DNA from: a virus
Lineage: Duplodnaviria; Heunggongvirae; Uroviricota; Caudoviricetes
Length of the DNA: 40,599 nucleotides
Direction: 5' to 3' (one strand)
IMG/VR virus record: IMGVR_UViG_2537562012_000007
Coordinates: 1-40,599 of that record
Position numbers and translations under genes: made by a program. This document shows positions 1,419 through 28,053 of this stretch, piece after piece (position 1 is the stretch's first letter; each line of letters starts with the position of its first letter). The notes under the pieces were generated by a model. That model saw nothing but the letters and a program-made list of their open reading frames with translations. It was not told the origin of the DNA and did not search any database.

Positions 1419-3890
1419 TTAAAAATCAGCCTGACTCGGGATCAGTTTTTGCCAGATAACTGAAACGTATTTTGCCTGGTAACGGGCGTCATCAAGTGCA
1501 TTATGGCGCTCACCTTCGAATGGAATAGCCGTTCTGGCATCGAAGTCTATGGCTTTCCCCAGCTCAACGATTGTGCGTACATCGCGATCGTTGTAGTAAC
1601 GCCACGGGCAGGGGATCCCCTGCCGTTCGTATGAACGGCGCAAAATCGTGTTGTCGAAGTTGGCTCCATTTCCCCAGACCTGAACAAAAAATTCATCGGA
1701 GTTTTCGTCGATAAATTCCCGCAATTGTAACAGTGCATCATCTAACGGGATTTCATCGGTCATAATGGCAGATTGCGCCTCGCGTGATTGCTTAAGCCAC
1801 CATTTAATGGTGTCACGATCAATGACTCCGCCAGCAGTTTCCAGATCGATAGTCTTACTAAATTCCGGTCCCATATCTCCGGTTTGCGGATCGAAAAATA
1901 TTGCACCTATTGAGATAATCGGGGCATCAGGATTTTTTCCCATGGTTTCAAGGTCGATCATTAGATGGTCACACGTCCTGCTGGTGGATGTGATAACGCG
2001 ATGACCGTTCACCGTAATTAAGGGATCTGCCGTCTCGCCAGTTTCACTATCGCTGGCGTGATCCTGAGCGCTGCCAGCATTCTCCTTGTGTGGGTGTTCA
2101 GCGCCTTCCATTTTCTCCGAATCGTCTTCCTGAACTTCAACCTGGTTCTTGTCATCGAATGTTTCCTGGTATGTTGCGTCGCCCATCACCGCACCACAAT
2201 CAGGGCAGTTGCCACCACCGCTCTGACCGCAGGCGGTGCAGATTTTTTCCGGTTCCTGTTGCACTACTGGTTCAGGTTGTTTCGTTTCTGGCTCGTTTTG
2301 TTGCGTATTTGGGCTGTTTTGTTCCGCTTTCTGGTCGTTCTGTTCCGTTTCTTGCTGGTTCTGGTTCACAGTATCGCGGGTCTGGATCCCCTTAACCCAT
2401 TTCGGATCATTCGGGTCGCTAATCCCTTCAATAAATTCACCACGTGATGCAGCAAGCAACTTATCGGCGTCAGGCTGGCTGATATTGGCTGCCTGCATAA
2501 TTTTGTTTACTTCGTCAGCGGTAACTTTTACCGGTTCTGGCTGTGCGGTCGTGTCAGATGCACCAGTATTTTGTTGTGAACCTGAGTATGTACTGTTTTT
2601 GCGGGCGAAATATTCTTCTTTCGTGATTTCAGTAGCCCCGGCAGCCAGCGCCTTATCCAGACCAGAAAGTTTGTTTGCGCGACCGTATTTTTCGCCATCC
2701 TTGTCGGTGAAGAGGAAGTAGAACGGCCCCTCACGCTCTACAGATGGTTCGACTTCCACTTTGCATTCGGTTTTTTCGTTGTCCGGAATTGCCGTTTCCA
2801 CTGCATCAGTTTCTGGTACTGGCGACGAGAGAGTATCAGTTGCGCTCTGATTTGTTCCTTCATCTTCAAACACGCCCTTTGTAGTCAGGTATTCAGTAAT
2901 GTATTTGTTCAGTGCCACAGGATCTTTGTGAATGTCGATCGGACGTCCACGGACAAGGCCAAAAATAGTCTGGCGGTCGTAGCGAAGGGCATCAGGCTGT
3001 TTGCGCATCGATGCCGAGATACGCTTCCAGTCTTCGCGGTCGTTGTCGATAACTTCATTTTTTGCCCAGCGATGGATGCTGCCGTCAATGTTTCCGGCAT
3101 CCACATCACCAGGCCAGAGAGCGTAGGCCAGTTCGTCATCCAGTGTTTTCCATGTCTGCTTGTATTCGCGATGAATGACTGCAGTGACAGGGGAGATATT
3201 TTCTGCTGAGTTTTCAGTGTGCTGTCGGTTGACTCTGGCGCGGGCGAGATCAACAGCAGACGTGTATTTTCCGGTTTCCTTGCGTTCACCTTCGCGACGT
3301 TTTTTCCAGATGCGCATCTCTGCCTGAATTTCGGGCCATTTAGCTCCAGGCTTACATTTATGCTTAACCCACCCGATGGCATGCAACTTAAGTTCTGGAT
3401 ACATGGCGTTAACTTCTGGCATTTTCATCAACGCTTCAACGATATGTCCGTCGAATGTTGCCATGTCTTCCTGCAACAATTCCTGCGCGCTAATCACCAT
3501 ATCAACGGTGATGTTTTCACATGTGTCGAACTTAACCATGACAGCGTTCTGTACTTCAGGGGCCAGCTTGTCAAAAGTGACGTTCATCGGATCTGATTCA
3601 GTCTCAACCGGGACAAAGGAAGCAGACTCCTCATCCCAGCGGTTTTCCTGCATATATTCAGCATCCCAGGAATCGAGGGCAGGGCGGGGTATACCGGGTT
3701 TATCCTCGCAAACAAGAAATTTATAAGCGCAGTCCTGAGCAGCCGGATAATGCTCCAGGAATTGCCAGTGAAATTTTGCGCGGGCGCGACGTTCATCACC
3801 GGCTTCAATGGCAGTGGCTACAGCGACTGCACCTTCTTCCTTTATTGCCTGTTCGTCCGGAATGGCGGCGCAAATAAAGACTTTACTCAT
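1419..3890 (-). CDS. Large exonuclease: RecE-like central region, Zn-ribbon, C-terminal DnaQ-like (DEDDh) 3'-5' exonuclease domain
   Basis: 823 aa. C-terminus has DLETMG ... H-x4-D motifs; a central stretch ([33 protein letters not shown]) resembles RecE as I recall it; CxxC-x9-CxxC ribbon; Q/E/N-rich linker. GAGGT RBS upstream of the ATG at 3890. Confidence 0.75.
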
Positions 3891-7733: not shown

Positions 7734-7804
7734 CTCGCAATATTCATACCGGATCACTTCCGGCAATTTGTGAGTAAAAAGATTCGGTATCAAAAGAGGT
7801 GAGT

Positions 7805-8875
7805 ATGGCTAACGCCTGGCTCAGATTATGGCATGACATGCCAAATGACCCTAAGTGGCGAACAATTGCCAGGGTGTCAGGGCAGCCAATTGCAACAGTG
7901 ATGGCAGTGTATATCCACCTCCTGGTGAGCGCGTCACGAAATGTCACGCGAGGTCACATTGATGTCACGACAGAAGATTTGGCAAGTGCGCTCGACGTGA
8001 CAGAAGAGGTAATTGATTCAATTTTGCAGACGATGCAGGGGCGGGTACTTGATGGTGATTTAATCACTGGATGGGAAAAACGCCAGGTGCTGAAAGAGGA
8101 CAACGGCAATATTTCGCAAACCGCAAAATCTCCGGCAGAGCGCAAGAGGGCGCAGCGAGAGAGGGAAAGAAAGCGGGAACAAAATGGCGATTGTCACGGC
8201 GAGTCACGAAATGTCACGCACATGTCACGACGAGTCACGACAGATAAAGATACAGATAAAGATACAGATCAAGAAGATCAAAACACTATGGTCCATGGCG
8301 TAAAAAACGCCACGAACCAGGCAGGGGATGTTCAGACCGTCACTCCTGGCCAGCCCGCAGGCACGACACCGGAAGCCGATTCAGCGTATGCGCTGAAAGC
8401 CGATTCGGGCGCTGTGCAGCAGGTGATGACCGCAAGGCAGGAGCAATCACACCAACTTCAGCAGCCTGAAGCCGATTCCGCCATTCAGCGGGAAGCCGAT
8501 CGGGTAGTCCCGGAAAACACCGGGCAGCCTGTGGGACGAGTGGATTATCCTGATGTGTTCGAACAGGTCTGGCGGGAATACCCGTTGCGTGCCGGGGCAA
8601 ACCCGAAGAAATCCGCTTTCAGTGCCTGGAAGGCCAGATTACGCGAGGGGGTGCCACCAGAGGCCATGCTGGATGGCGTGAGGCGTTACGCAAGATACTT
8701 GGCGGCTACCGGGAAAACGGGAACGGAATTTGTTCAGCGAGCGACGACGTTTTTTGGACCGGACCGGAATTTTGAGAACCCCTGGTTGCTCCCGGTAAGC
8801 GGCACGAACAACCAGCGTTGTGTGAATCATATTTCTGAACCGGATAACGAAATTCCGCCGGGCTTCAGGGGGTAA
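7805..8875 (+). CDS. Replication initiator, O-like / replisome-organiser N-terminal domain
   Basis: N-terminus MANAWLRLWHDMPNDPKWRTIARV...; the gene body contains iteron-like GTCACG repeats (see repeat features); AGAGG RBS 5 nt upstream of the ATG at 7805. Confidence 0.7.
   Translation: MANAWLRLWHDMPNDPKWRTIARVSGQPIATVMAVYIHLLVSASRNVTRGHIDVTTEDLASALDVTEEVIDSILQTMQGRVLDGDLITGWEKRQVLKEDNGNISQTAKSPAERKRAQRERERKREQNGDCHGESRNVTHMSRRVTTDKDTDKDTDQEDQNTMVHGVKNATNQAGDVQTVTPGQPAGTTPEADSAYALKADSGAVQQVMTARQEQSHQLQQPEADSAIQREADRVVPENTGQPVGRVDYPDVFEQVWREYPLRAGANPKKSAFSAWKARLREGVPPEAMLDGVRRYARYLAATGKTGTEFVQRATTFFGPDRNFENPWLLPVSGTNNQRCVNHISEPDNEIPPGFRG
7931..8006. repeat. Iteron cluster 1 inside the replication gene (GTCACGA / TGTCACG units)
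   Basis: GCGTCACGAAATGTCACGCGAGGTCACATTGATGTCACGACAGAAG ... CGACGTGACAGAAG. Confidence 0.6.
8191..8267. repeat. Iteron cluster 2 inside the replication gene, plus a GATAAAGATACA direct repeat
   Basis: TTGTCACGGCGAGTCACGAAATGTCACGCACATGTCACGACGAGTCACGACAGATAAAGATACAGATAAAGATACAGATC; the 15-mer TCACGAAATGTCACG is shared with cluster 1. Confidence 0.6.
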
Positions 8876-9858: not shown

Positions 9859-10905
9859 ATGACTAGTGAATCAAATGTTAATGCTCTGATAGAGCGTCAA
9901 TTCGAAGTTGCTGACGGTAATGTAAGAAGTCTTAATTTGCCGAAATATGATAAATATACAGTATGTAATTTACGGGGAGGCATTGGTAAGACATCTTTAA
10001 CTTTTAATCTGTCATATTTGGCGGATAACGCATTAATCGTGGATACGTGCCCGCAAGGAAATTTATCATATTTTTTTGACAATAATTATGCATCTTCGTC
10101 TAGCACAACTGCAAATGACCTCTTAATGCCTTATTTTGTTCCAGGGCTTGGATTTGCAACGCGTGCTGCAAAGCTAGTATCATCAACTAATGCTTGGTTT
10201 GCGGGCAAGAATAACTATTTTATTCAATCTGATAGTCAACTTTATCTTCTACCTACGCAAATGGCGAATGCTCTGGCTCAAGCCAGAACAATTTCTGGGG
10301 CTACTCAGCAGGTTGTTATTGATACAATTCTTTTTTCTCTGAAGAAAGAAATAGCCAGAGAAATGGTTGAAACTGGTACTACAAAAGCGTTAATTGATAC
10401 ATCACCTTTTTTCTCTGGAGCGACGCATTTATCTTGGCATGCAACAGATGCTTTAATAGTTCCAGTGAGGACAGATCAGCAATCGATTAATTCATTAAGA
10501 TTACTTATTGATACTCTGACTAAACCAACATCAGAATTTAGAAAGATAATGCCGTCTGATGGCCATACACCAAAAATTCAGATGGTGGTTATTACCCATT
10601 GCGGATGGTCAACAGTGGCAGGAGCAAGGAATAAACCAAATCAACAGACAAAAATGTACATCGAAGCTGTAAGAGAGGTAATTCGACAAAATATTAGTAA
10701 TTTTACAACAGATGATCCTAATAATCACATTGTGATTCTTGATGATTTTCTGGGTAGTGGCAGAATGTCAAGTGCTAAGTCTAAACCATTAGAGTTGTTA
10801 AATCCAGGAGATGCAATGACTGTGAATAGAGTTAGGACATCCGTGAATTTATCTGTTAACAAAATAAAAAATGAATTAAAGTTCATTCACAACTCCATAT
10901 GGTAA
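9859..10905 (+). CDS. ParA/MinD-family P-loop ATPase with C-terminal extension
   Basis: Deviant Walker A CNLRGGIGKTSLT followed by DTCPQGN, as in ParA/Soj; 348 aa; markedly AT-rich codon usage by eye relative to the phage backbone. Confidence 0.75.
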   Translation: MTSESNVNALIERQFEVADGNVRSLNLPKYDKYTVCNLRGGIGKTSLTFNLSYLADNALIVDTCPQGNLSYFFDNNYASSSSTTANDLLMPYFVPGLGFATRAAKLVSSTNAWFAGKNNYFIQSDSQLYLLPTQMANALAQARTISGATQQVVIDTILFSLKKEIAREMVETGTTKALIDTSPFFSGATHLSWHATDALIVPVRTDQQSINSLRLLIDTLTKPTSEFRKIMPSDGHTPKIQMVVITHCGWSTVAGARNKPNQQTKMYIEAVREVIRQNISNFTTDDPNNHIVILDDFLGSGRMSSAKSKPLELLNPGDAMTVNRVRTSVNLSVNKIKNELKFIHNSIW

Positions 10906-11250
10906 ATGACATTTTATTTGAATAATCTGGATTGATAATCATTGTTACATTAATTGTTATTAATTCTAAATAATCCTATCGTTCTTCAGGATGAGATAAT
11001 TTATATTTATTTGTGTTGTGATTTTTTGAATTTATTTAGGTTTATGAACTGTTTTAGATGAAATGAATCATGAATACGAAATTGTTGCGGTACTGATAAC
11101 GAGGAAAGACCTCTGCGAGGTACGAATCCGAACCGGCCAGACGGAGGTCGCTGTCTTCACAGCTTACGAACCTGAGGAGTAAGAGACCAGGCGAGGGAGA
11201 AATCCCTCGCCACCTCTGATGTGTCAGGCATCCTCAACGCACCCGCACTT

Positions 11251-11273
11251 AACCCGCTTCGGCGGGGTTTTTA
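11251..11273 (+). terminator. Rho-independent terminator
   Basis: ACCCGC-TTCG-GCGGG stem-loop followed by a T-run. Confidence 0.6.
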
Positions 11274-11355
11274 TTGGTTGACAAAATTATGAATATGCAC
11301 CAATATCTTGGTTGACAAAAGTCGTTTTTTGCACGGATTAGGCGGAGAAGTGTCT

Positions 11356-11949
11356 ATGCAGAACCATCCATTCCCTTGGGAGTTCTTTCCTGAGTTAACA
11401 GAGGAGCGTTTAACCATTATAGCTGAGGAGTTGCTCAGGATACAGGATATTACTCATGAGTTATTGTCATCGCCCTATGATGATAATTACACTCGTGGTG
11501 GTTGTACATTTGGGCGTCAGCGGCAGGCGTTGCTACAAATGTGCGTACGAAAGACATATGACTGGTTAAGACTACTTAATCCTGGCATGGATCTTACGTT
11601 TTCAATTGGGAATGTCCCTATTCGTTTCTTTACTGATGACGCAGATAACCCCAAGAAACGCGGTTTTTTCAAAAGAAATGATGCTGATCGACTCTTCGAG
11701 TCAGAGGAGACTACTCCAACTATGCATCGCTTTGTGGTTGAAAAGCCTGAATTTGAAGGCGAGGGTGGTAGAGTCATTTTTAATGGCTATAACGTGTTTG
11801 GTGAGATCGTGTCAACTTGGACATATGGTGCGGACCGTGTTGTTATGCTGAACTCTGTCGATGATGTACCTCCAGCACCGGTACCTATCGAACTAGAACC
11901 TATCAGTGCGTCTAAGACTGAGAAGGAAAAGAAACAAAATAGCAAATAG
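11356..11949 (+). CDS. Hypothetical acidic protein (197 aa), accessory cassette
   Basis: ATG at 11356 with GGAG RBS; the TTG at 11308 used by the track lies inside a promoter-like repeat; no recognisable domain. Confidence 0.6.
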   Translation: MQNHPFPWEFFPELTEERLTIIAEELLRIQDITHELLSSPYDDNYTRGGCTFGRQRQALLQMCVRKTYDWLRLLNPGMDLTFSIGNVPIRFFTDDADNPKKRGFFKRNDADRLFESEETTPTMHRFVVEKPEFEGEGGRVIFNGYNVFGEIVSTWTYGADRVVMLNSVDDVPPAPVPIELEPISASKTEKEKKQNSK

Positions 11950-11959
11950 TGGGTGAAAT

Positions 11960-13081
11960 GTGTTTAACGGTACTAATTTAAGACTTGCTCGTCTGTATCA
12001 CGAGCTATCTCTGGAGCAGGTTGCTGAGAAGGTTGAAAAAACACGCCAGTATGTACAGCGACTGGAGTCTGGTTCAGCTACTCCATCCCCAGAGCTTATA
12101 AATAAATTAGCCGAGGTTTTGCGCGTGAAGCCCGCCTTTTTCGAAGGGCAGGAACATTCTCCTGTTAATGAAGAGATTGTACATTTTCGTAAACGCGCCT
12201 CGACAAGGATGTCAACGAAGCTATCAACACTCGCTAAGGCTGAGTTTTATCGTCGTTTTATTGATGTATTTGAAGATAACCTTAATTTGTCACCTGTTCG
12301 ATTTCCTGAATTTCGTGTCCATACACAAGAAGATATCGAGCGAGCGGCAGAAAAATGTCGTATTGAGTGGGGCTTAGGCTTTGGCCCAATTGAAAATATG
12401 ACTCGCCTTGCCGAGAAACTTGGGGCGTTTGTTACTTCATTTGACTCCGTTTCGGATGAAGTAGATGCACTGTCTGTTCCTCTACGAAGGCCTTTTATTG
12501 TTCGAAATACAGCTAAAAATTCACCTTGTAGGCAACGCTTTGATATTGCTCATGAGGTTGCCCATTTGATTCTTCATGAAGGAATTTCTACTGGGGATAG
12601 ATTAACTGAATCCCAGGCAAACCGTTTTGCCTCTGCTCTGTTGCTTCCCAGAACGTCGATGGCGAAATATTTTCCAAGACCTGTGGGGGGGAGGATAAAT
12701 TGGCAGGGACTAAGCCAATTTAAGTTGACATGGAAAGTAAGTAAGGCTGCCATTGTTTACAGGGCTCATCAATTAGGACTTTTGACTGATGAGCAGTACA
12801 GAACTGCATTTATGGGGTTGAAACGGAAAGGGGAAGCTATTGATGAAAAAGAAGATTATCTAATCCCTCATGAGCGTCCTGAGTTATTCCGTCGGGCTTT
12901 ATCGTTTTTATTTGAAGAGTTAGGATACGACCCACAGCGTATAGCTGATGAAATGGATATAGAAGTGGACATTTTTTATGAGTTAGTAGGAGATGATCTT
13001 CCTGCGGTTCATGAACTGCCAGGAAGTGGTGATGTTGTTTCACTACAATCTTACCGAACTCTTAGAGGCAAAATTCACTAG
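11960..13081 (+). CDS. XRE-family HTH fused to ImmA/IrrE-type zinc metallopeptidase
   Basis: N-terminal HTH (LRLARLYHELSLEQVAEKVEKTRQYVQRLESG), central HEVAHLILHE (HExxH) motif typical of ImmA/IrrE (COG2856-like); GTG start. Confidence 0.8.
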   Translation: MFNGTNLRLARLYHELSLEQVAEKVEKTRQYVQRLESGSATPSPELINKLAEVLRVKPAFFEGQEHSPVNEEIVHFRKRASTRMSTKLSTLAKAEFYRRFIDVFEDNLNLSPVRFPEFRVHTQEDIERAAEKCRIEWGLGFGPIENMTRLAEKLGAFVTSFDSVSDEVDALSVPLRRPFIVRNTAKNSPCRQRFDIAHEVAHLILHEGISTGDRLTESQANRFASALLLPRTSMAKYFPRPVGGRINWQGLSQFKLTWKVSKAAIVYRAHQLGLLTDEQYRTAFMGLKRKGEAIDEKEDYLIPHERPELFRRALSFLFEELGYDPQRIADEMDIEVDIFYELVGDDLPAVHELPGSGDVVSLQSYRTLRGKIH

Positions 13082-17023: not shown

Positions 17024-17099
17024 GGCCCTTTAGCTCAGTGGTGAGAGCGAGCGACTCATAATCGCCAGGTCGCTGGTTCAAATCCAGCAAGGGCCACCA
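17024..17099 (+). tRNA. ileZ: tRNA-Ile2-like (anticodon CAU)
   Basis: Manual cloverleaf: acceptor GGCCCTT/AAGGGCC, D-arm GCTC/GAGC, anticodon loop CTCATAA, T-loop TTCAAAT, CCA end; resembles E. coli tRNA-Ile2 more than elongator tRNA-Met by recollection. Confidence 0.8.
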
Positions 17100-17100
17100 A

Positions 17101-17177
17101 CCGCCACTAGCTCATCAGGAAAGAGCGTCAACCCTTTAAGTTGAGTGTGCGAGGTTCGAGTCCCCGGTGGCGGTCCA
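17101..17177 (+). tRNA. tRNA-like gene, anticodon apparently UUU (Lys-like), atypical
   Basis: Acceptor CCGCCAC/GTGGCGG, anticodon stem TCAAC/GTTGA with loop CCTTTAA (C at position 33), T-loop TTCGAGT, CCA end; D-loop lacks the usual GG. Confidence 0.55.
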
Positions 17178-17179
17178 GT

Positions 17180-17255
<76 letters not shown>

Positions 17256-17258
17256 TAT

Positions 17259-17333
<75 letters not shown>

Positions 17334-20758: not shown

Positions 20759-21307
20759 ATGAAGGTTAATAAAAAGAAGCTCGCGGAAATTTTCAACGTG
20801 GATCCACGAACGATTGAACGCTGGCAGTCTCAGGGGCTCTCTTGTGTCTCTGGTGGTAGTAAGGGGGTTGAATCTGTATTTGATACCGCCATGGCAATTC
20901 AGTGGTATGCGCAGCGCGAAGCCGATATTGAAAACGAAAAACTCCGCAAAGAGACCGAGGATTTGCGTGCGGCTGCGGAATCAGATTTACAACCCGGCAC
21001 CATTGACTATGAGCGCTACCGACTCACAAAAGCACAGGCTGATGCACAGGAACTGAAAAATGCCCGCGAAGAAGGGCTGGTACTGGAAACGGAATTGTTT
21101 ACCTTCATTCTGCAACGTGTGGCACAGGAGATTTCGGGGATACTTGTACGTGTGCCGCTGACATTACAGCGTAAATATCCGGATATTTCACCGTCACACC
21201 TTGATGTGGTGAAAACTGAAATCGCAAAAGCCTCCAACGTTGCAGCTAAAGCTGGTGAGAACGTAGGCGGGGGGATTGATGATTTCAGACGCACAGAAGG
21301 CAGCTAA
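20759..21307 (+). CDS. Terminase small subunit (Nu1)
   Basis: [27 protein letters not shown]... aligns with lambda Nu1. Confidence 0.9.
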
Positions 21308-23195
21308 TGCAGCCGGTGCGATAGCAACAGGGCTTGTATCTCTCAATATTCCGGTACCACTGACGACAGTTCAGTGGGCTGATCAGCATTATTATCTGCC
21401 AAAAGAGTCTTCATATACTCCCGGGCAATGGGAAACACTGCCGTTTCAGGTTGCCATCATGAACAGCATGGGGAATGACCGGATCCGCACCGTTAATCTG
21501 ATTAAATCGGCGCGTGTTGGTTACACCAAAATGCTGTTGGGGGTGGAGGCTTATTTTATTGAACACAAATCCCGTAACAGCCTGCTTTTTCAGCCGACAG
21601 ATTCTGCGGCAGAAGATTTTATGAAATCCCATGTCGAACCAACGATAAGAGACGTTCCTGTATTACTGGAGCTGGCTCCGTGGTTTGGCAGAAAACATCG
21701 GGACAACACGCTTACCCTGAAACGTTTCTCCTCCGGTGTGGGATTCTGGTGTCTGGGCGGAGCTGCTGCCAAAAACTACCGTGAAAAATCTGTGGATGTG
21801 GTCTGCTATGACGAACTCTCCTCGTTTGAACCGGATGTGGAAAAAGAAGGTTCACCAACTCTGCTTGGCGATAAGCGTATCGAAGGTTCGGTATGGCCTA
21901 AATCCATACGCGGCTCAACGCCCAAAATTAAAGGTTTTTGCCAGATTGAAAAAGCCGCGAACGAATCTGCACATTTTATGCGGTTTTATGTGCCATGCCC
22001 TCATTGTGGTGAAGCCCAGTATCTGAAGTTTGGCGATGATGCGACAACCTTTGGCCTGAAATGGGAGAAGGGCAAGCCGGAGACGGTGTATTACCTGTGT
22101 GAACATAATGGCTGCGTGATCCGTCAGTCGGAACTTGACCAGACCGACGGGCGGTGGATTTGTGACAATACCGGGATGTGGACGCGTGACGGTCTGACAT
22201 TTTACAGCGCCGGTGATGAGGAAATCCCGCCACCGCGCTCAATCTCGTATCACATCTGGACGGCATACAGCCCGTTCACCACCTGGGTACAGATTGTTTA
22301 TGACTGGCTTGATGCACTGAAGGATCCGAATGGCGTCAAGACGTTCATTAACACCACGCTGGGGGAGCCTTATGAAGAGGCTGTGGCAGAAAAACTGAGC
22401 TTTGAGTTGTTGCTGGAAAAAGTCTGCCACTATGATGCGCAGGTTCCCCTGCGGGTGGTTTACCTGACCGCAGGGATCGACTCTCAGAAAAACCGTTATG
22501 AGATTTATGTCTGGGGCTGGGCTCCTGGCGAAGAAGCTTTTCTGATTGACAAGCAGATCATCATGGGGAGACCGGAAGATGAGGACACCCTTAAACGCGT
22601 TGATGCCGTGATCCGGAAAAAATACCGTCATGCAGATGGCACTGAAATTTCCATTTCCCGCGTCTGCTGGGATACCGGTGGTATTGACCAGGACATTGTG
22701 TATCAGCGATCCAGAAAACACGGCACTTTTTTTGTGCTCCCCATCAAAGGGGCGTCGGTGTACGGCAAGCCGGTGATCACCATGCCAAAAAAGCGAAACC
22801 AGCGTGGGGGGTTTTTGTGTGAGGTGGGTTCCGATACCGTCAAGGAAATGCTGTATGCGCGTTTTGCCCTGCCGGTGGTATCTGCCAGTGAAGTCGCACC
22901 GTATACCTTCCGTTTTCCGGATAACCCGGACATTTTTTCTGATGTTGAAGCTAAACAACTCGTGGCAGAAGAGCTGGTTGAAAAAGTTGTGAACGGGCGG
23001 GTGAAACTCCAGTGGGATGCCAGAAAACGGCGTAATGAAGCTCTGGACTGTCTGGTGTATGCCTATGCAGCGCTGCGCATTTCCGTTCAGCGGTGGCAAC
23101 TGGATCTGGATGCACTGGCCCGCGCCAGAAGAGATGAACAGGACGACGATGAAATGACTATTGAAGAAATCGCGGCTGCTCTGAGTGGAGGATAA
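21279..23195 (+). CDS. Terminase large subunit (gpA)
   Basis: Aligns with lambda gpA over its whole length (e.g. [42 protein letters not shown]). Confidence 0.95.
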
Positions 23196-23198
23196 GTG

Positions 23199-23408
23199 AT
23201 GATTTATACGCATGAAATGCTATGCGATGCCCGCCGGGCGTTACATGAACTGATGATCGGACGTGCTGTGGTTTCCGTCAGCAAGGACGGGCGTCAGGTT
23301 CAGTATTCGCGGGCGACAATTGGTGAACTGCGTCAGTATATTGAAGAGCTGGAAAGTGCGCTGGGTGTATCCGGACGGCGTCGTGGCCCGGCAGGAGTGG
23401 GGCTGTGA
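23199..23408 (+). CDS. Head-tail joining protein (gpW)
   Basis: ARRALHELMIGRAVVSVSKDGRQVQYSRATIGELRQYIEELE ... RRRGPAG matches lambda W. Confidence 0.85.
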   Translation: MIYTHEMLCDARRALHELMIGRAVVSVSKDGRQVQYSRATIGELRQYIEELESALGVSGRRRGPAGVGL

Positions 23409-24976
23409 ACGGGGAACTGGTGGATATTCATGGGCAGCCTTTACGGCAAAGCATGGGATATTCTGGTGGTGGTTCCGGGTTCGGTGGGCAAATGGCAGAA
23501 TGGCTGCCTGCACCGGAAAGTGCCGACGTGGCGCTCTTACCTTCCATTCAGCTGGGTAACGCCCGTGCGGATGATCTGGTCCGTAACAACGGTATTGCCG
23601 CAAATGCTGTGGAAATTCATAAAGACCATATCGTCGGCCACATGTTTCGCCTGAGCTATCGACCCAACTGGCGCTGGCTGGGGATGTCGGAAGCTGATTC
23701 GCATGCCTTTATTGAAGATGTGGAGGCGGCGTGGATGGAATATTGCGATCCTGTGTTTGGTTCGATGGATGTGGAGGGACGTCGTTCGTTTACCGAATTT
23801 ATTCGTGAAGGGGTGGGCGTTCATACGTTTAACGGTGAAATTTTTGTCCAGCCCGTATGGGATACGGAATCCACGTCATTATTCAGAACAAAATTCAAGA
23901 CCATCAGTCCGAAGCGCGTCAGCACGCCCGGTTATGGCATCGGCGATCGTTTTATGCGTGCCGGAGGGGAAATCAACCGTTACGGAAAGGCGATGGCTTA
24001 TCATGTTCAGAACGATGACTGGCCTGGCTACGGTGTCAGTAACTGGACACGGATTGCGGCGACGCTGCCCTCCGGGCGGCCGGGAATGATCCATGTGTTT
24101 CAGCCACAGGAGGACGGACAGACGCGCGGGGCCAACCAGTTTTATTCCGTGATGGAGCGCCTCAAGATGCTCGACACACTGCAGGCTACGCAACTGCAGT
24201 CGGCGGTGGTGCGGGCGATGTATGCCGCGACGATTGAATCCACACTGGATTCGGAAAAAGCATTTGAATATATCGCCGGGGTGGGAAATGGCGGTAAAAA
24301 TCCCCTGAACACCATCATGAAAGGCTATGCGCGCTATTACGCCACCAATACGGTAAAGATGGGTGGGGTTCGTATTCCGCATCTTTATCCGGGGGATTCA
24401 CTGAATCTGCAGACAGCACAGAATGCGGATAATGGTTTCTCTGAACTGGAAAAGGCGCTGTTACGTTACATTGCTGCCGGACTGGGCATGTCCTATGAGC
24501 AGCTTTCCCGTGATTATTCACAGGTCAGTTATTCCAGTGCCAGGGCATCCGCCAATGAGTCGTGGCGGTATTTTATGGGGAAACGAAAATTTGTGGCCAG
24601 CCGACTGGCGTCACAGATGTTTGCCTGCTGGCTGGAGGAAGCCCTTATTCGCGGTGTGATCCGCCCGCCGAAATCCCGTTTCTCATTCTGGGAGGCCCGT
24701 TCCGGGTGGTGTCGTGCCGAGTGGATTGGTGCCGGCCGCATGGCGATTGATGGCCTTAAGGAGGTGCAGGAGGCGGTGATGCGTATTGAAGGTGGCCTGA
24801 GTACATACGAGAAGGAGCTGGCCCTGATGGGAGATGACTATCAGGAGATTTTCCGCCAGCAACTGCGTGAAAGCCAGGAGCGACAGGCTGCCGGTCTTCC
24901 CCGCCCCATCTGGATAAAGGATACGTTTCAGCAGCAGATCCGACAGACAACGGGAGGAAAAGGCGATGCGTCGTAA
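23405..24976 (+). CDS. Portal protein (gpB)
   Basis: Aligns with lambda gpB (GGGSGFGGQ, NARADDLVRNNG, SYEQLSRDYSQVSYSSARASANESW); GTG start overlapping the W stop. Confidence 0.9.
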   Translation: MNGELVDIHGQPLRQSMGYSGGGSGFGGQMAEWLPAPESADVALLPSIQLGNARADDLVRNNGIAANAVEIHKDHIVGHMFRLSYRPNWRWLGMSEADSHAFIEDVEAAWMEYCDPVFGSMDVEGRRSFTEFIREGVGVHTFNGEIFVQPVWDTESTSLFRTKFKTISPKRVSTPGYGIGDRFMRAGGEINRYGKAMAYHVQNDDWPGYGVSNWTRIAATLPSGRPGMIHVFQPQEDGQTRGANQFYSVMERLKMLDTLQATQLQSAVVRAMYAATIESTLDSEKAFEYIAGVGNGGKNPLNTIMKGYARYYATNTVKMGGVRIPHLYPGDSLNLQTAQNADNGFSELEKALLRYIAAGLGMSYEQLSRDYSQVSYSSARASANESWRYFMGKRKFVASRLASQMFACWLEEALIRGVIRPPKSRFSFWEARSGWCRAEWIGAGRMAIDGLKEVQEAVMRIEGGLSTYEKELALMGDDYQEIFRQQLRESQERQAAGLPRPIWIKDTFQQQIRQTTGGKGDAS

Positions 24977-26582
24977 TTTATCGCATATTGCCGCCATGGC
25001 ATTTAATGAGCCGCTTTTACTGGAACCCGCCTATGCGCGGGTTTTCTTTTGCGCGCTGGGTAAGGAGATAGGGGCCGGCAGCCTTGCTGTTCCTCAGCAG
25101 GCTGTTCAGCTTGATGCTGATGGTATGCAACTGGCTGTGACTGACTATATGGCGGGTGGGCAGCGTCCGGCAAAGAGTTACCAGGTGAAGAATGGCATCG
25201 CCATTCTGCCGGTGAGCGGCACGCTGGTGCATAAACTGGGTACCCTGCGCCCTTACTCCGGCATGACAGGTTATGACGGCCTGACAGCCCGTCTTCAGAT
25301 GGCGGTGAATGATCCGGATGTGCGCGGCATTTTGCTGGATATCGACAGCCCGGGCGGTCAGGCTGCCGGGGCGTTTGACTGTGCTGACATGATTTACCGC
25401 CTGCGGGAACAGAAGCCCGTGTGGGCGCTGTGCAATGACATGGCCTGTTCAGCCGCCATGTTGCTGGCGGCAGCCTGTACGCGTCGGCTGGTCACGCAGA
25501 CGGCAAAAATTGGTTCGATTGGTGTGATGATGGCGCACACCAGTTACGAGAAACAACTGGCACAGGAAGGGGTGGACATCACGCTGATTTACTCCGGGCG
25601 GCACAAGGTTGACGGCAACAGTATTCAGGCATTGCCGGCAGGTGTGCGTGCAGATTTTCAGCGCCGTATTGATGAGGCCCGCCGGATGTTTGTCGACAAG
25701 GTGGCGCTTTATACGGGGCTGAGTTCAGAGGCGGTGATGAATACCGAGGCTGCCGTTTATGACGGTCAGGCAGGCATTGATGCAGGTCTGGCTGATCAAC
25801 TGATTAATGCTGCAGATGCCGTTGAAGTGATGGTTTCTGCACTGAATGACTCTGTTACGAAGGAGAATGCAATGACTGTTAAAAATCTCACCGTTGCTGA
25901 AGCGGTGGCCCAGGAAAATCAGCGCGTGATGGGGATCCTGAATTGTCAGGAGGCGAAAGGGCGCGAGCAACTGGCGCAAATGCTGGCAGGTCAGCCTGGA
26001 ATGACGGTTGAGCAGGCGAAAACGTTGCTTGCAGCTGCGCCGGTTGCCGGTACTGACAGCACGGGTGATCAGATTATGGCGCTGCCGGAAGCAAAGGGGC
26101 GTGAGCAACTGGCACAGATGCTGGCAGGTCAACCTGGGATGACGGTGGAGCAGGCGAAAGCGTTTCTGGCGGCAGCCCCTGCTGCCAGTGCTGCAGGCAC
26201 AGGCGATCAGATTATGGCGTTGCCGGAAGCTAAAGGGCGTGAACAACTCGCGCAGGCGCTGGCTGAACAGCCGGGAATGACCGTTGACCAGGCAAAAACG
26301 TTACTGGCGGCGGCACCGGTTGCCGGTTCTGCAAGTGTCGGCGATCAGATTATGGCGCTGCCGGAGGCGAAAGGGCGCAAGCAACTTGCACAGGCACTGG
26401 CAGAACAACCGGGAATGACGGTGGCGCAGGCGAAAAAGTTGCTGGCAGCCGCACCGGCGGCATCGCAACCGTCACAGGAAACACTTTTTGATCGCTTTAT
26501 GGCACAGCATGCTGCCAGTGCGGTTTCCGGAGGCGGAACTGCCGGACACGGAGAAGAAGATCTGCTGATGAGTATGCCGTAA
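24966..26582 (+). CDS. Head maturation protease (gpC, ClpP/S49-like) with C-terminal scaffold region
   Basis: Aligns with lambda gpC (MAFNEPLLLEPAYARVFF, PYSGMTGY, GSIGVMMAH); the C-terminus carries four tandem 46-aa repeats. Confidence 0.9.
   Translation: MRRNLSHIAAMAFNEPLLLEPAYARVFFCALGKEIGAGSLAVPQQAVQLDADGMQLAVTDYMAGGQRPAKSYQVKNGIAILPVSGTLVHKLGTLRPYSGMTGYDGLTARLQMAVNDPDVRGILLDIDSPGGQAAGAFDCADMIYRLREQKPVWALCNDMACSAAMLLAAACTRRLVTQTAKIGSIGVMMAHTSYEKQLAQEGVDITLIYSGRHKVDGNSIQALPAGVRADFQRRIDEARRMFVDKVALYTGLSSEAVMNTEAAVYDGQAGIDAGLADQLINAADAVEVMVSALNDSVTKENAMTVKNLTVAEAVAQENQRVMGILNCQEAKGREQLAQMLAGQPGMTVEQAKTLLAAAPVAGTDSTGDQIMALPEAKGREQLAQMLAGQPGMTVEQAKAFLAAAPAASAAGTGDQIMALPEAKGREQLAQALAEQPGMTVDQAKTLLAAAPVAGSASVGDQIMALPEAKGRKQLAQALAEQPGMTVAQAKKLLAAAPAASQPSQETLFDRFMAQHAASAVSGGGTAGHGEEDLLMSMP
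25872..26582 (+). CDS. Nu3-like scaffold protein, in-frame internal start within gpC
   Basis: In-frame ATG at 25872 preceded by AAGGAG at about 6 nt; analogous to lambda Nu3 nested in C. Confidence 0.5.
   Translation: MTVKNLTVAEAVAQENQRVMGILNCQEAKGREQLAQMLAGQPGMTVEQAKTLLAAAPVAGTDSTGDQIMALPEAKGREQLAQMLAGQPGMTVEQAKAFLAAAPAASAAGTGDQIMALPEAKGREQLAQALAEQPGMTVDQAKTLLAAAPVAGSASVGDQIMALPEAKGRKQLAQALAEQPGMTVAQAKKLLAAAPAASQPSQETLFDRFMAQHAASAVSGGGTAGHGEEDLLMSMP
25945..26475. repeat. Four tandem copies of a 138-bp (46-codon) unit within C/Nu3
   Basis: Protein repeats ALPEAKGREQLAQ(M/A)LA(G/E)QPGMTV(E/D/A)QAK..LLAAAP...GDQIM; lambda C has one such unit as far as I recall. Confidence 0.8.
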
Positions 26583-26619: not shown

Positions 26620-26955
26620 ATGATTAAAACCACCACAGAAAAGCGCGCGGACAGGCGCATTTTTGCCGGAAGCGATCCGGTGTATACCGCAACAGGTACC
26701 AGTGGTATCAGTGTTGCCACGCCTTCACTGACGCCACTGATGCTGGATGACGCCAGCGGAAAACTGGTGGCATGGGATGGTCAGAAAGCCGGAACGGCTG
26801 TGGGGGGGCTGGTACTGGCGCTGGCCGGGACCGAGCCCACACTGACGTACTACAAAAGCGGTACGTTTGCCACCGAATCGCTGGTCTGGCCGGATTCGGT
26901 GGATGCAGTGAAAAAAGCCAACGCGTTTGTGGGAAGTGCCATCAGCCACGCCTGA
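26620..26955 (+). CDS. Head decoration protein (gpD)
   Basis: TPLMLDDASGKLVAWDG ... TYYKSGTF ... AFVGSAIS matches lambda D. Confidence 0.9.
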   Translation: MIKTTTEKRADRRIFAGSDPVYTATGTSGISVATPSLTPLMLDDASGKLVAWDGQKAGTAVGGLVLALAGTEPTLTYYKSGTFATESLVWPDSVDAVKKANAFVGSAISHA

Positions 26956-27024: not shown

Positions 27025-28053
27025 ATGGGGTTATTTACCACGCGTCAGTTGCTCGGCTACACCGAGCAGAAAGTGAAATTCCGTGCGCTGTTTCTGGAGC
27101 TGTTTTTTCGTCGTACGGTCACTTTCCATACTCAGGAAGTGATGCTGGATAAAATCACCGGAAAAACACCGGTTGCGGCATATGTGTCTCCGGTTGTGTC
27201 AGGTAAGGTACTGCGCAGTCGTGGTGGTGAAACCCGCGTGTTACGCCCCGGCTATGTTAAACCAAAACACCGGCTGGATTATCAGCAGGCGGTGGAGCGT
27301 CTTCCGGGGGAAGATCCGGCCCGTCTTAATGACCCGGCCTACCGTCGCCTGCGTATTCTGACGGACAACCTGAAACAGGAAGAGCAGGCGATTGTGCAGG
27401 TGGAAGAAATGCAGGCGGTCAGCGCTGTTCTGCAGGGTAAGTACACCATGAGCGGTGAACAGTTTGAGACGGTGGAAGTGGATTTTGGTCGTTCTGCCGC
27501 CAATAACATTACGCAGGCAGGGGGACGCGAATGGTCAAAACAGAATGCTGACACCTTTGATCCGACGCATGATCTGGATGCGTACTGCGATTTTGCTTCC
27601 GGTACCATCAATATTGCGATTATGGACGGTACTGTCTGGCGTATGCTGAACGGTTTTAAGCTGTTTCGTGAAAAACTGGATACCCGCCGTGGCTCAAAAT
27701 CTGAACTGGAAACCGCGCTGAAAGATCTGGGTTCCGTGGTTTCTTTTAAAGGTTATTACGGTGATCTGGCCATCATGGTGGCGAAAACAACGTATGTTGA
27801 TGAAAACGGGGATGAGCAGCGTTATCTGCCGGAAGGCACACTGATTCTTGGAAACACTCAGGTGGAGGGTGTCCGTTGTTATGGCGCAATCCAGGATAAC
27901 CAGGCGCTGAGTGAAGGGATCACCTCTGCAATTCGTTATCCGAAACACTGGTTAGAGGTGGGGGACCCGGGGTGCGAATATACCATGACGCAGTCTGCGC
28001 CGTTGATGGTGTTGCCGGATCCGGACGCGTTTGTGGTAGTTCAGGTGAAATAA
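27025..28053 (+). CDS. Major capsid protein (gpE)
   Basis: Aligns with lambda E throughout (YVSPVVSGKVLRSRGG, VEEMQAVSAVLQGKYTMSGE, SAPLMVLPDPDAFVVVQV). Confidence 0.9.
   Translation: MGLFTTRQLLGYTEQKVKFRALFLELFFRRTVTFHTQEVMLDKITGKTPVAAYVSPVVSGKVLRSRGGETRVLRPGYVKPKHRLDYQQAVERLPGEDPARLNDPAYRRLRILTDNLKQEEQAIVQVEEMQAVSAVLQGKYTMSGEQFETVEVDFGRSAANNITQAGGREWSKQNADTFDPTHDLDAYCDFASGTINIAIMDGTVWRMLNGFKLFREKLDTRRGSKSELETALKDLGSVVSFKGYYGDLAIMVAKTTYVDENGDEQRYLPEGTLILGNTQVEGVRCYGAIQDNQALSEGITSAIRYPKHWLEVGDPGCEYTMTQSAPLMVLPDPDAFVVVQVK

Follow-up and report, generated by a model that had tools for sequence, protein, structure and literature searches.

The DNA analysed here is IMG/VR record IMGVR_UViG_2537562012_000007, whose 40,599 nucleotides (nt), referred to below as the window, represent a lambdoid Escherichia coli prophage that carries an integrase at the left end and a head module of the lambda type. 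The C-terminal third of its S49 family prohead protease gene contains four in-frame units of 138 bp, i.e., 46 amino acids (aa), at window positions 25917-26480. We found this array to be a four-copy member of the scaffold repeat family known from phage 21 as the 'Tri box'. The finding is real, was interpreted correctly in outline by the initial annotation, and is of an ordinary kind: annotation of the repeat in phage 21 dates back to the early 1990s, and the gain in knowledge is incremental. Modestly new is the allelic series of two to five copies (one in lambda, three in phage 21) that accompanies nearly the same capsid protein. We consider it probable that the region is a tandem array of a conserved lambda-family scaffold module, which acts as a multivalent scaffold and also tethers the protease in the procapsid.

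Architecture of the four-unit array

Tandem Repeats Finder (TRF) returned one array at 25949-26457 with a period of 138, 3.7 copies, 79% matches and a score of 571. The count falls short of four because unit 4 passes into the unique C-terminal tail of the protein. Self-identity at a lag of 138 reached 0.72, compared to 0.31 +/- 0.03 at other in-frame lags (z ~15), and peaked at just 0.33 in the protease part of the same gene. In the translation of the open reading frame (ORF) 24966-26582, the sequence EAKGR occurs at residues 329, 375, 421 and 467, corresponding to a spacing of exactly 46 aa. The initial annotation had placed four in-frame 138-bp units at 25945-26475, in the C-terminal third of the protease gene. 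The TRF period and the self-identity bear out the units, whose noted span lies inside 25917-26480. The ORFs together with their Pfam matches confirm the location and show the gene to be of the S49 (lambda C-like) type, flanked by the portal gene and the homologues of D and E.

Aligned with the units of lambda and phage 21, the scaffold part carries in frame the motif I[ML]xxxEAxGRExxAxxLAxxPGM[TS]VExA[KR]xxLAA. Unit 1 differs in its N-terminal context, where RVMGILNCQ takes the place of DQIMALP, and the C-terminal tail is kept after the last unit in all alleles of two to five copies. A hidden Markov model (HMM) of the unit, derived from the units of the window, lambda and phage 21, finds four domains here and three in phage 21-like proteins. 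No Pfam or NCBIfam family spans the repeat unit. Sub-threshold hits to the repeat (the N-terminal hairpin of Bac_DNA_binding, DUF732, T2SSK and others) contained no individually significant stretch and were dismissed as compositional. An antisense ORF of 173 aa (25725-26246, minus strand) also spans the repeats; it was discounted solely for lying opposite a strongly constrained sense frame, and no homology search was made with it.

An AlphaFold2 model of a single unit (unit 3, from a 97-sequence unit alignment) shows three short helices (GDQIM, REQLAQAL and TVDQAKTLLA), with a predicted local distance difference test (pLDDT) of 84-86 over the first 40 residues and of <60 in the linker. The model of the whole 236-aa scaffold protein described below reached a pLDDT of 62 and a predicted template modelling score (pTM) of 0.25, too poor for a fold search, and no fixed packing between units is predicted. 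Over the 97 diverse units, the positions conserved in at least 90% (I, E, A, G, R, A, L, A, A and L) are hydrophobic positions together with a polar E-x-x-G-R signature. Neither PDB nor BFVD contained a significant structural neighbour of the unit. A search of the PDB with the whole protein sequence recovered the protease domain only (SppA, ClpP), and the repeat received a chance match to bL12 at E 0.25.

The predicted nested scaffold gene and its relatives

All four units fall inside a nested in-frame ORF that starts at ATG 25872. Its Shine-Dalgarno (SD) sequence AAGGAG was read directly, and the SD core and the ATG are kept in 58 of the 58 related loci in which the segment could be located, representing 14 distinct sequence variants from this lineage and the phage 21 group. 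What is kept is a GGAG core, 5-7 nt and the ATG, while the neighbouring codons vary (AAGGAG, CAGGAG or CAGGAGG). ATG 25872 lies at the alignment position of the annotated start of phage 21 gene 6 (AGGAGG, 5 nt, ATG). Moreover, PHROG 8399 (head scaffolding protein) and PHROG 8940 (capsid assembly protein) have four matching stretches each. Judging from the conserved internal SD and ATG, we infer that the nested ORF is translated and encodes a homologue of phage 21 gp6, with 236 aa compared to 200 aa in phage 21.

The start of lambda Nu3 corresponds to Met239 of the C protein, 68 codons upstream of the position shared by phage 21 and the prophage. This residue is Ile both here and in phage 21, and the start codon is not conserved in the lineage of the prophage (window 25677-25688); the next in-frame ATG (25686) is preceded by a weak and distant GAGG only. 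By this alignment, the start of the scaffold has shifted downstream by 60-70 codons compared to lambda. The initial annotation had pointed to the AAGGAG and ATG ahead of the repeats, proposed a Nu3-like internal ORF, and given lambda a single motif copy. The signal proved correct and conserved in relatives, and a nested ORF behind a strong SD is indeed present, but its start is homologous to that of phage 21 gene 6 rather than to that of Nu3. The single lambda copy was borne out on alignment. Lambda is not the nearest comparator; phage 21, Gifsy-1 and most relatives from E. coli and Salmonella already have three copies.

Phage 21 genes 5 and 6 share with the prophage the gene order (portal, S49 protease enclosing an in-frame scaffold ORF, decoration protein, major capsid protein (MCP)), the place of the nested start after a strong SD, the tandem motif in the scaffold part and the C-terminal tail. 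Amino acid identity is 74% for the protease part and 82% for the MCP. In the GenBank record of the phage 21 head operon (M81255), the three copies are entered as repeat_regions named 'Tri1 box', 'Tri box' and 'Tri3 box' with the remark 'function unknown; putative', and their coordinates are those of the three phage 21 units. Our literature search found no paper on Tri boxes. Phage 21 differs in having three units; the repeat is not a triplication here, where the prophage has four copies and its close relatives two to five. The phage 21 units are also strongly diverged from each other (19-21 identities over the 36-residue core, ~59% at the nucleotide level), whereas those of the prophage share 27-33/36 among themselves and 19-23/36 with Tri2 and Tri3 of phage 21. 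Unit 1 is the orthologue of Tri1 (28/36) and the sole clear one; it shares 23/36 with the lambda copy. These relationships point to an expansion or homogenisation of the array in the lineage of the prophage after its split from the phage 21 type.

Lambda C/Nu3, like the prophage gene, is an S49 protease whose C-terminal part forms the scaffold; the motif occurs in it once (ENSRIMGILNCEEAHGREEQARVLAETPGMTVKTARRILAAAP), together with a related tail. The lambda unit is the counterpart of unit 1 of the prophage. It differs in standing alone after a long unrelated acidic segment, and identity to lambda amounts to 62% in the protease and 59% in the MCP. The C-terminal tail is also conserved in phage 21 (MFEHFMANH...MLMAMP) and, weakly, in lambda (ALDRLMQG...DLLNTPV). 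Lambda produces a separate scaffold protein from an internal in-frame start (Shaw and Murialdo 1980, as cited in PMC8508860). References given in PMC8508860 and PMC10695390 describe C as the protease and its gene as overlapping Nu3. According to PMC3224144 and PMC10695390, the lambda scaffold is needed for procapsid assembly and is degraded by the protease. The same module also occurs in tandem within the S49 head proteases of Gifsy-1 and of other lambdoid gpC homologues from Salmonella, E. coli and Trabulsiella. These differ in having three copies, with 45-63% identity to the scaffold of the prophage.

Age, copy number and distribution of the module

Pairs of units are 62-78% identical at the nucleotide level, with a longest exact match between units of 10-17 bp, and show 11-17 synonymous versus 9-18 non-synonymous codon differences per pair. 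Between the paralogous 34-codon cores, synonymous divergence (dS) ranges from 0.57 to 1.52 and the ratio of non-synonymous to synonymous divergence (dN/dS) from 0.03 to 0.28. Because identity is this low and the differences are concentrated at synonymous sites, the units are old duplicates whose amino acid sequence is maintained by purifying selection. Comparison with the orthologous gene of strain N61 gave a dN/dS of 0.14 in the repeats and 0.10 in the protease. In the same comparison, dS in the repeat region (0.52) was twice that of the protease region (0.25), suggestive of a mosaic origin of the array or of gene conversion in its past.

The same four-unit array is found in four complete E. 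coli genomes at 99.5-99.6% identity, and arrays of the same span occur in dozens more complete genomes at 87-97%. The initial annotation had spoken of an amplification, of a hotspot of length variation, and of assembly collapse or expansion to be checked for. With dS at 0.6-1.5, the first term is misleading. The second expectation holds in that alleles of two, three, four and five copies exist among close relatives; this array itself, however, is a poor substrate for recombination, since the longest exact match between its units is 17 bp. Collapse or expansion during assembly is not credible, as the units share just 10-17 bp of exact identity, and the check gave no support for an artefact.

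Of 5426 complete E. coli genomes, 106 (~2%) carry the C lineage of this prophage, and most of the ~90 alleles listed have the four-copy span. The four-copy state is stable across alleles that are 87-99.6% identical. An allele of five copies (584 aa, WP_250696612.1; locus L004, 1767-3521, in STEC005) is identical in nine complete genomes of Shiga toxin-producing E. coli (STEC), namely STEC005, 306, 307, 308, 313, 316, 367, 383 and 719. Its units 2 and 3 are mosaics of neighbouring units and 96% identical at the nucleotide level with a 91-bp exact match, which indicates a recent duplication or gene conversion. Among the IMG/VR loci of this lineage, stop-to-stop ORFs of 462, 508, 554 and 600 aa correspond to two, three, four and five units. 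Taken over all 76 loci returned, including phage 21-like arrays and two fragments, two units were counted in four loci, three in nine, four in 45 and five in one. A three-copy locus (L019) represents a clean loss of unit 2 of the prophage, and three loci (L042, L043 and L060) retain the first and the last unit only. In one sub-lineage (L042-L049), a series with zero, one, two or three internal units was observed, which are 100% identical at the DNA level; its counts of three, four and five are open to short-read collapse, to which the two-copy state is immune. Relatives with two to five units have an MCP 94-100% identical to that of the prophage and a protease part 92-99% identical.

E. coli UMNF18 was rejected as a short allele, being a truncated prophage remnant. 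Its C-like gene (L085, 1767-3047) breaks off inside or beside the array and adjoins a shikimate-transporter pseudogene, placing a rearrangement breakpoint at the array. Many database homologues are clusters of 'S49 family peptidase, partial' that stop inside a repeat unit, some of them holding hundreds to thousands of member sequences on contigs of 400-600 bp. Contigs in short-read assemblies thus appear to break frequently at the array.

A profile search of the unit against 1.84 billion representative proteins gave 403 matches (E<=1e-3). Nearly all of these are single-copy and located ~80 aa from the C-terminus of proteins of 400-550 aa, or within proteins of 100-230 aa; none of the 403 has more than three units. 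Peptidase_S49 was present in all nine long representatives tested. Units were counted by HMM because the first homologue search returned mostly truncated proteins. By this count, most homologues from E. coli and Salmonella have three copies; two were found in some stand-alone proteins of ~195 aa, three of which are named as Bradyrhizobium. Scanning the GTDB species representatives with the units of the prophage gave nine loci, with three copies in Trabulsiella and one in alphaproteobacterial and other hosts. In INPHARED, no sequenced phage has four copies. The arrays are longest in Gifsy-1 and the phage 21-like phages, with three copies in phage 21 itself; lambda carries a single copy, and approximately one unit is covered by the matches in N15, phi80 and 434. 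Across these sequence collections, a single copy is the rule and arrays of several copies are largely particular to enterobacterial lambdoid phages, and the matches show the module exclusively with S49 head proteases.

Gene context and other features of the prophage

The S49 gene is placed between a lambda B-type portal gene and the D-like and E-like genes, as in the lambda and phage 21 class (Table 1). Pfam Peptidase_S49 (PF01343) matches residues 146-290 of the 538-aa product with 115.5 bits (cutoff 24.9), and the ORF matches PHROG 53 (head maturation protease) at E 7e-219. The protease part is 62% identical to lambda C and 74% to phage 21 gp5, and Ser162 aligns with Ser166 of lambda and with the catalytic serine of SppA. 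A sequence search of the PDB with the whole protein likewise matched SppA at E 1e-16, serine aligned to serine. A near-identical gene in NZ_CP025892 (99.6% at the nucleotide level over the gene) bears the RefSeq name 'S49 family peptidase'. In the portal protein, RQSM|GYSGGGSG aligns with the annotated processing site of lambda gpB, REYA|GYHGGGSG.

Table 1 Head-module genes, the nested scaffold ORF and the repeat units in the window.
Feature	Position	Strand	Remarks
Terminase large subunit	21276-23195		Head module
W	23196-23408		Head module
Portal gene, lambda B-like	23405-24976	+	Directly 5' of the protease gene, overlaps its start; ORF list and RefSeq annotation of a near-identical locus
Prohead protease-scaffold gene, lambda C / phage 21 gp5-like	24966-26582	+	538 aa; ORF list, Pfam, PHROG
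Shine-Dalgarno sequence AAGGAG	25860-25865	+	Read directly; 6-nt spacer to ATG 25872
Nested in-frame Nu3/gp6-like scaffolding ORF (predicted)	25872-26582	+	236 aa, from Met303; in-frame ATG
Repeat unit 1	25917-26066	+	aa 318-367; NQRVMGILNCQEAKGRE...AAAPVAGTDSTG
Repeat unit 2	26067-26204	+	aa 368-413
Repeat unit 3	26205-26342	+	aa 414-459
Repeat unit 4	26343-26480	+	aa 460-505; start of the tail stands in for the linker
Unique C-terminal tail (TLFDRFMAQH...EEDLLMSMP)	26481-26579	+	Starts with an incomplete copy of the unit's first helix
Head decoration protein, lambda D-like	26620-26955	+	Pfam HDPD, 69 bits
Major capsid protein, lambda E-like	27025-28053	+	Pfam Phage_cap_E, 219.7 bits
FI			Head module

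Further repeats lie outside the head module. A 21-bp sequence repeated four times in tandem (TTGTTCCGTTTCTGGCTCGTT, 74% matches) is located at 2277-2360 within an 823-aa ORF on the minus strand (1419-3890), whose C-terminus forms an Rv2179c-like 3'-5' exoribonuclease domain; TTGTTCCGTTTCTGGCTCGTT would encode a 7-aa protein repeat. The early/replication region holds the short tandem repeats GTCACGACAA (4.9 copies) and ACAGATAAAGAT (2.9 copies) at 8193-8274, which may represent an origin-type iteron cluster. The ORF that hosts them (7799-8875, 358 aa) has no Pfam match. At 9859-13081, the early region also encodes an AAA_31 ATPase-like ORF (9859-10905) and an ORF combining HTH_3 with an IrrE-like Peptidase_M78 domain (11960-13081), both of which may be accessory or regulatory cargo. 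The late-regulatory region contains four adjacent tRNA genes (Met-CAT, Lys-TTT, Thr-TGT and Gly-TCC; 17024-17333). Strain 503025, otherwise the closest relative among complete genomes, has a different tRNA set at this place (Ile, Thr, Gly).

Possible roles of the units in head assembly

In the mechanism that we propose, each 46-aa unit would fold into a mini-domain of ~40 residues with three short helices (DQIMAL, REQLAQAL and TVEQAKTLLAA), followed by a variable and flexible linker of roughly 6-10 Ala, Gly, Ser or Thr residues. The array would be present in two products, the C-terminal third of the 538-aa protease and a separate 236-aa scaffolding protein. Each unit may serve as an independent interaction module for the E-like MCP, the presumed partner of the scaffold, and/or for other scaffold molecules, and the tandem arrangement would make a flexible multivalent scaffold that nucleates the procapsid. 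The expanded valency may, as the initial annotation had suggested, affect head assembly. Since the protease ends in the same array, it would be co-assembled inside the procapsid and later digest the scaffold. Copies could be gained or lost by unequal recombination or slippage between units, and the synonymous divergence of the units in this prophage would have stabilised the four-copy state.

Binding of the units to the MCP is inferred by analogy with lambda, in which yeast two-hybrid assays detected interactions of Nu3 with E, with itself and with C, and in which Nu3 is needed for portal incorporation (PMC3224144). In other phages, small helical or helix-turn-helix elements of scaffold proteins bind coat protein (PMC11565965). 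The helix-turn-helix at the C-terminus of P22 gp8, a small helical element in a flexible scaffold, may thus work like the units described here, and the helical motifs in the scaffolds of SPP1, phi29 and 80alpha invite the same comparison (PMC11565965). The likeness would be one of function only: our sequence and structure searches of the PDB revealed no similarity in sequence or fold to the C-terminal domain of P22 gp8 or to other solved scaffold proteins. Moreover, the P22 element is single, stands at the extreme C-terminus and is not fused to a protease, whereas the units here are repeated, internal and followed by a separate tail.

The main rival to such a multivalent scaffold is that the units merely fill length or volume as a largely disordered spacer that makes no specific contacts, with a near-neutral copy number and with capsid binding residing in the C-terminal tail. 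Several observations favour this idea. Two to five copies are tolerated on a nearly identical capsid protein; the scaffolds of lambda and phage 21 are both ~200 aa long despite containing one unit and an acidic segment in the former and three units in the latter; and the tail is conserved in lambda, phage 21 and the prophage. The poor AlphaFold2 model of the whole protein fits a disordered spacer as well, as does a title cited in PMC11922011, which terms lambda gpNu3 an intrinsically disordered assembly catalyst. Each unit is under strong sequence constraint, however, which disfavours a spacer, and we regard such a role as unlikely. A spacer would not be expected to keep ten positions in at least 90% of 97 diverse units, nor to show the low dN/dS found between paralogues whose synonymous sites are saturated, and the model of the single unit is moderately confident. 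Somewhat less probable still is that the units are elements for handling by the protease, in which each unit or junction is a recognition or cleavage site and additional units yield pieces of at most 46 aa that are able to exit the shell. An x-Q/R-x-M followed by A or G is found at every unit boundary (DQIM|AL, QRVM|GI, DRFM|AQ), reminiscent of the portal sequence that aligns with the gpB processing site, and the module accompanies S49 head proteases only. This co-occurrence, however, follows trivially from the nested-gene arrangement, the P1 residue of the lambda site is Ala instead of Met, and the Ile of DQIM is at least 90% conserved and lies in the first predicted helix, suggesting a buried core residue.

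By far the least probable reading is that the array arose by recent amplification, is an artefact of assembly or acts at the DNA level, e.g., as a set of repeated protein-binding sites. Tandem repeats of 138 bp are a classic source of mis-assembly, the internal units are fully identical in one IMG/VR sub-lineage, many homologues are partial proteins ending in the array, and in record OL657228 of phage 21, pattern matches to CII sites are marked on the strand opposite gene 6. For the array of the prophage itself, amplification and artefact are contradicted and ruled out by the divergence of its units, with exact matches of no more than 17 bp, and by its recurrence in complete genomes, where the four-unit span holds in most of the alleles listed. 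A function at the DNA level is ruled out by the concentration of the variation at synonymous sites, i.e., the DNA itself is not conserved.

For the multivalent scaffold, one may further ask whether copy number is an adaptive tuning knob rather than subject to neutral drift, which we think quite doubtful. If it were, going from two to five units would change the valency or length of the scaffold and thereby alter the nucleation rate, assembly fidelity or size of the procapsid, or make the phage more or less susceptible to capsid-hijacking satellites or to host defences sensing head-assembly proteins. Selection would then have favoured the synonymous divergence between units, locking in an optimal count.

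At the practical level, sub-lineages with identical units may be mis-counted, and the array breaks short-read assemblies. The lambda-type head scaffold and its protease are essential and structurally poorly understood. Our analysis delimits a module of ~40 residues; among hundreds of S49 protease-scaffold proteins, no other part of the scaffold is as conserved. The allelic series on a nearly constant capsid protein offers a ready-made experiment on whether scaffold valency matters for the assembly of T=7 heads.

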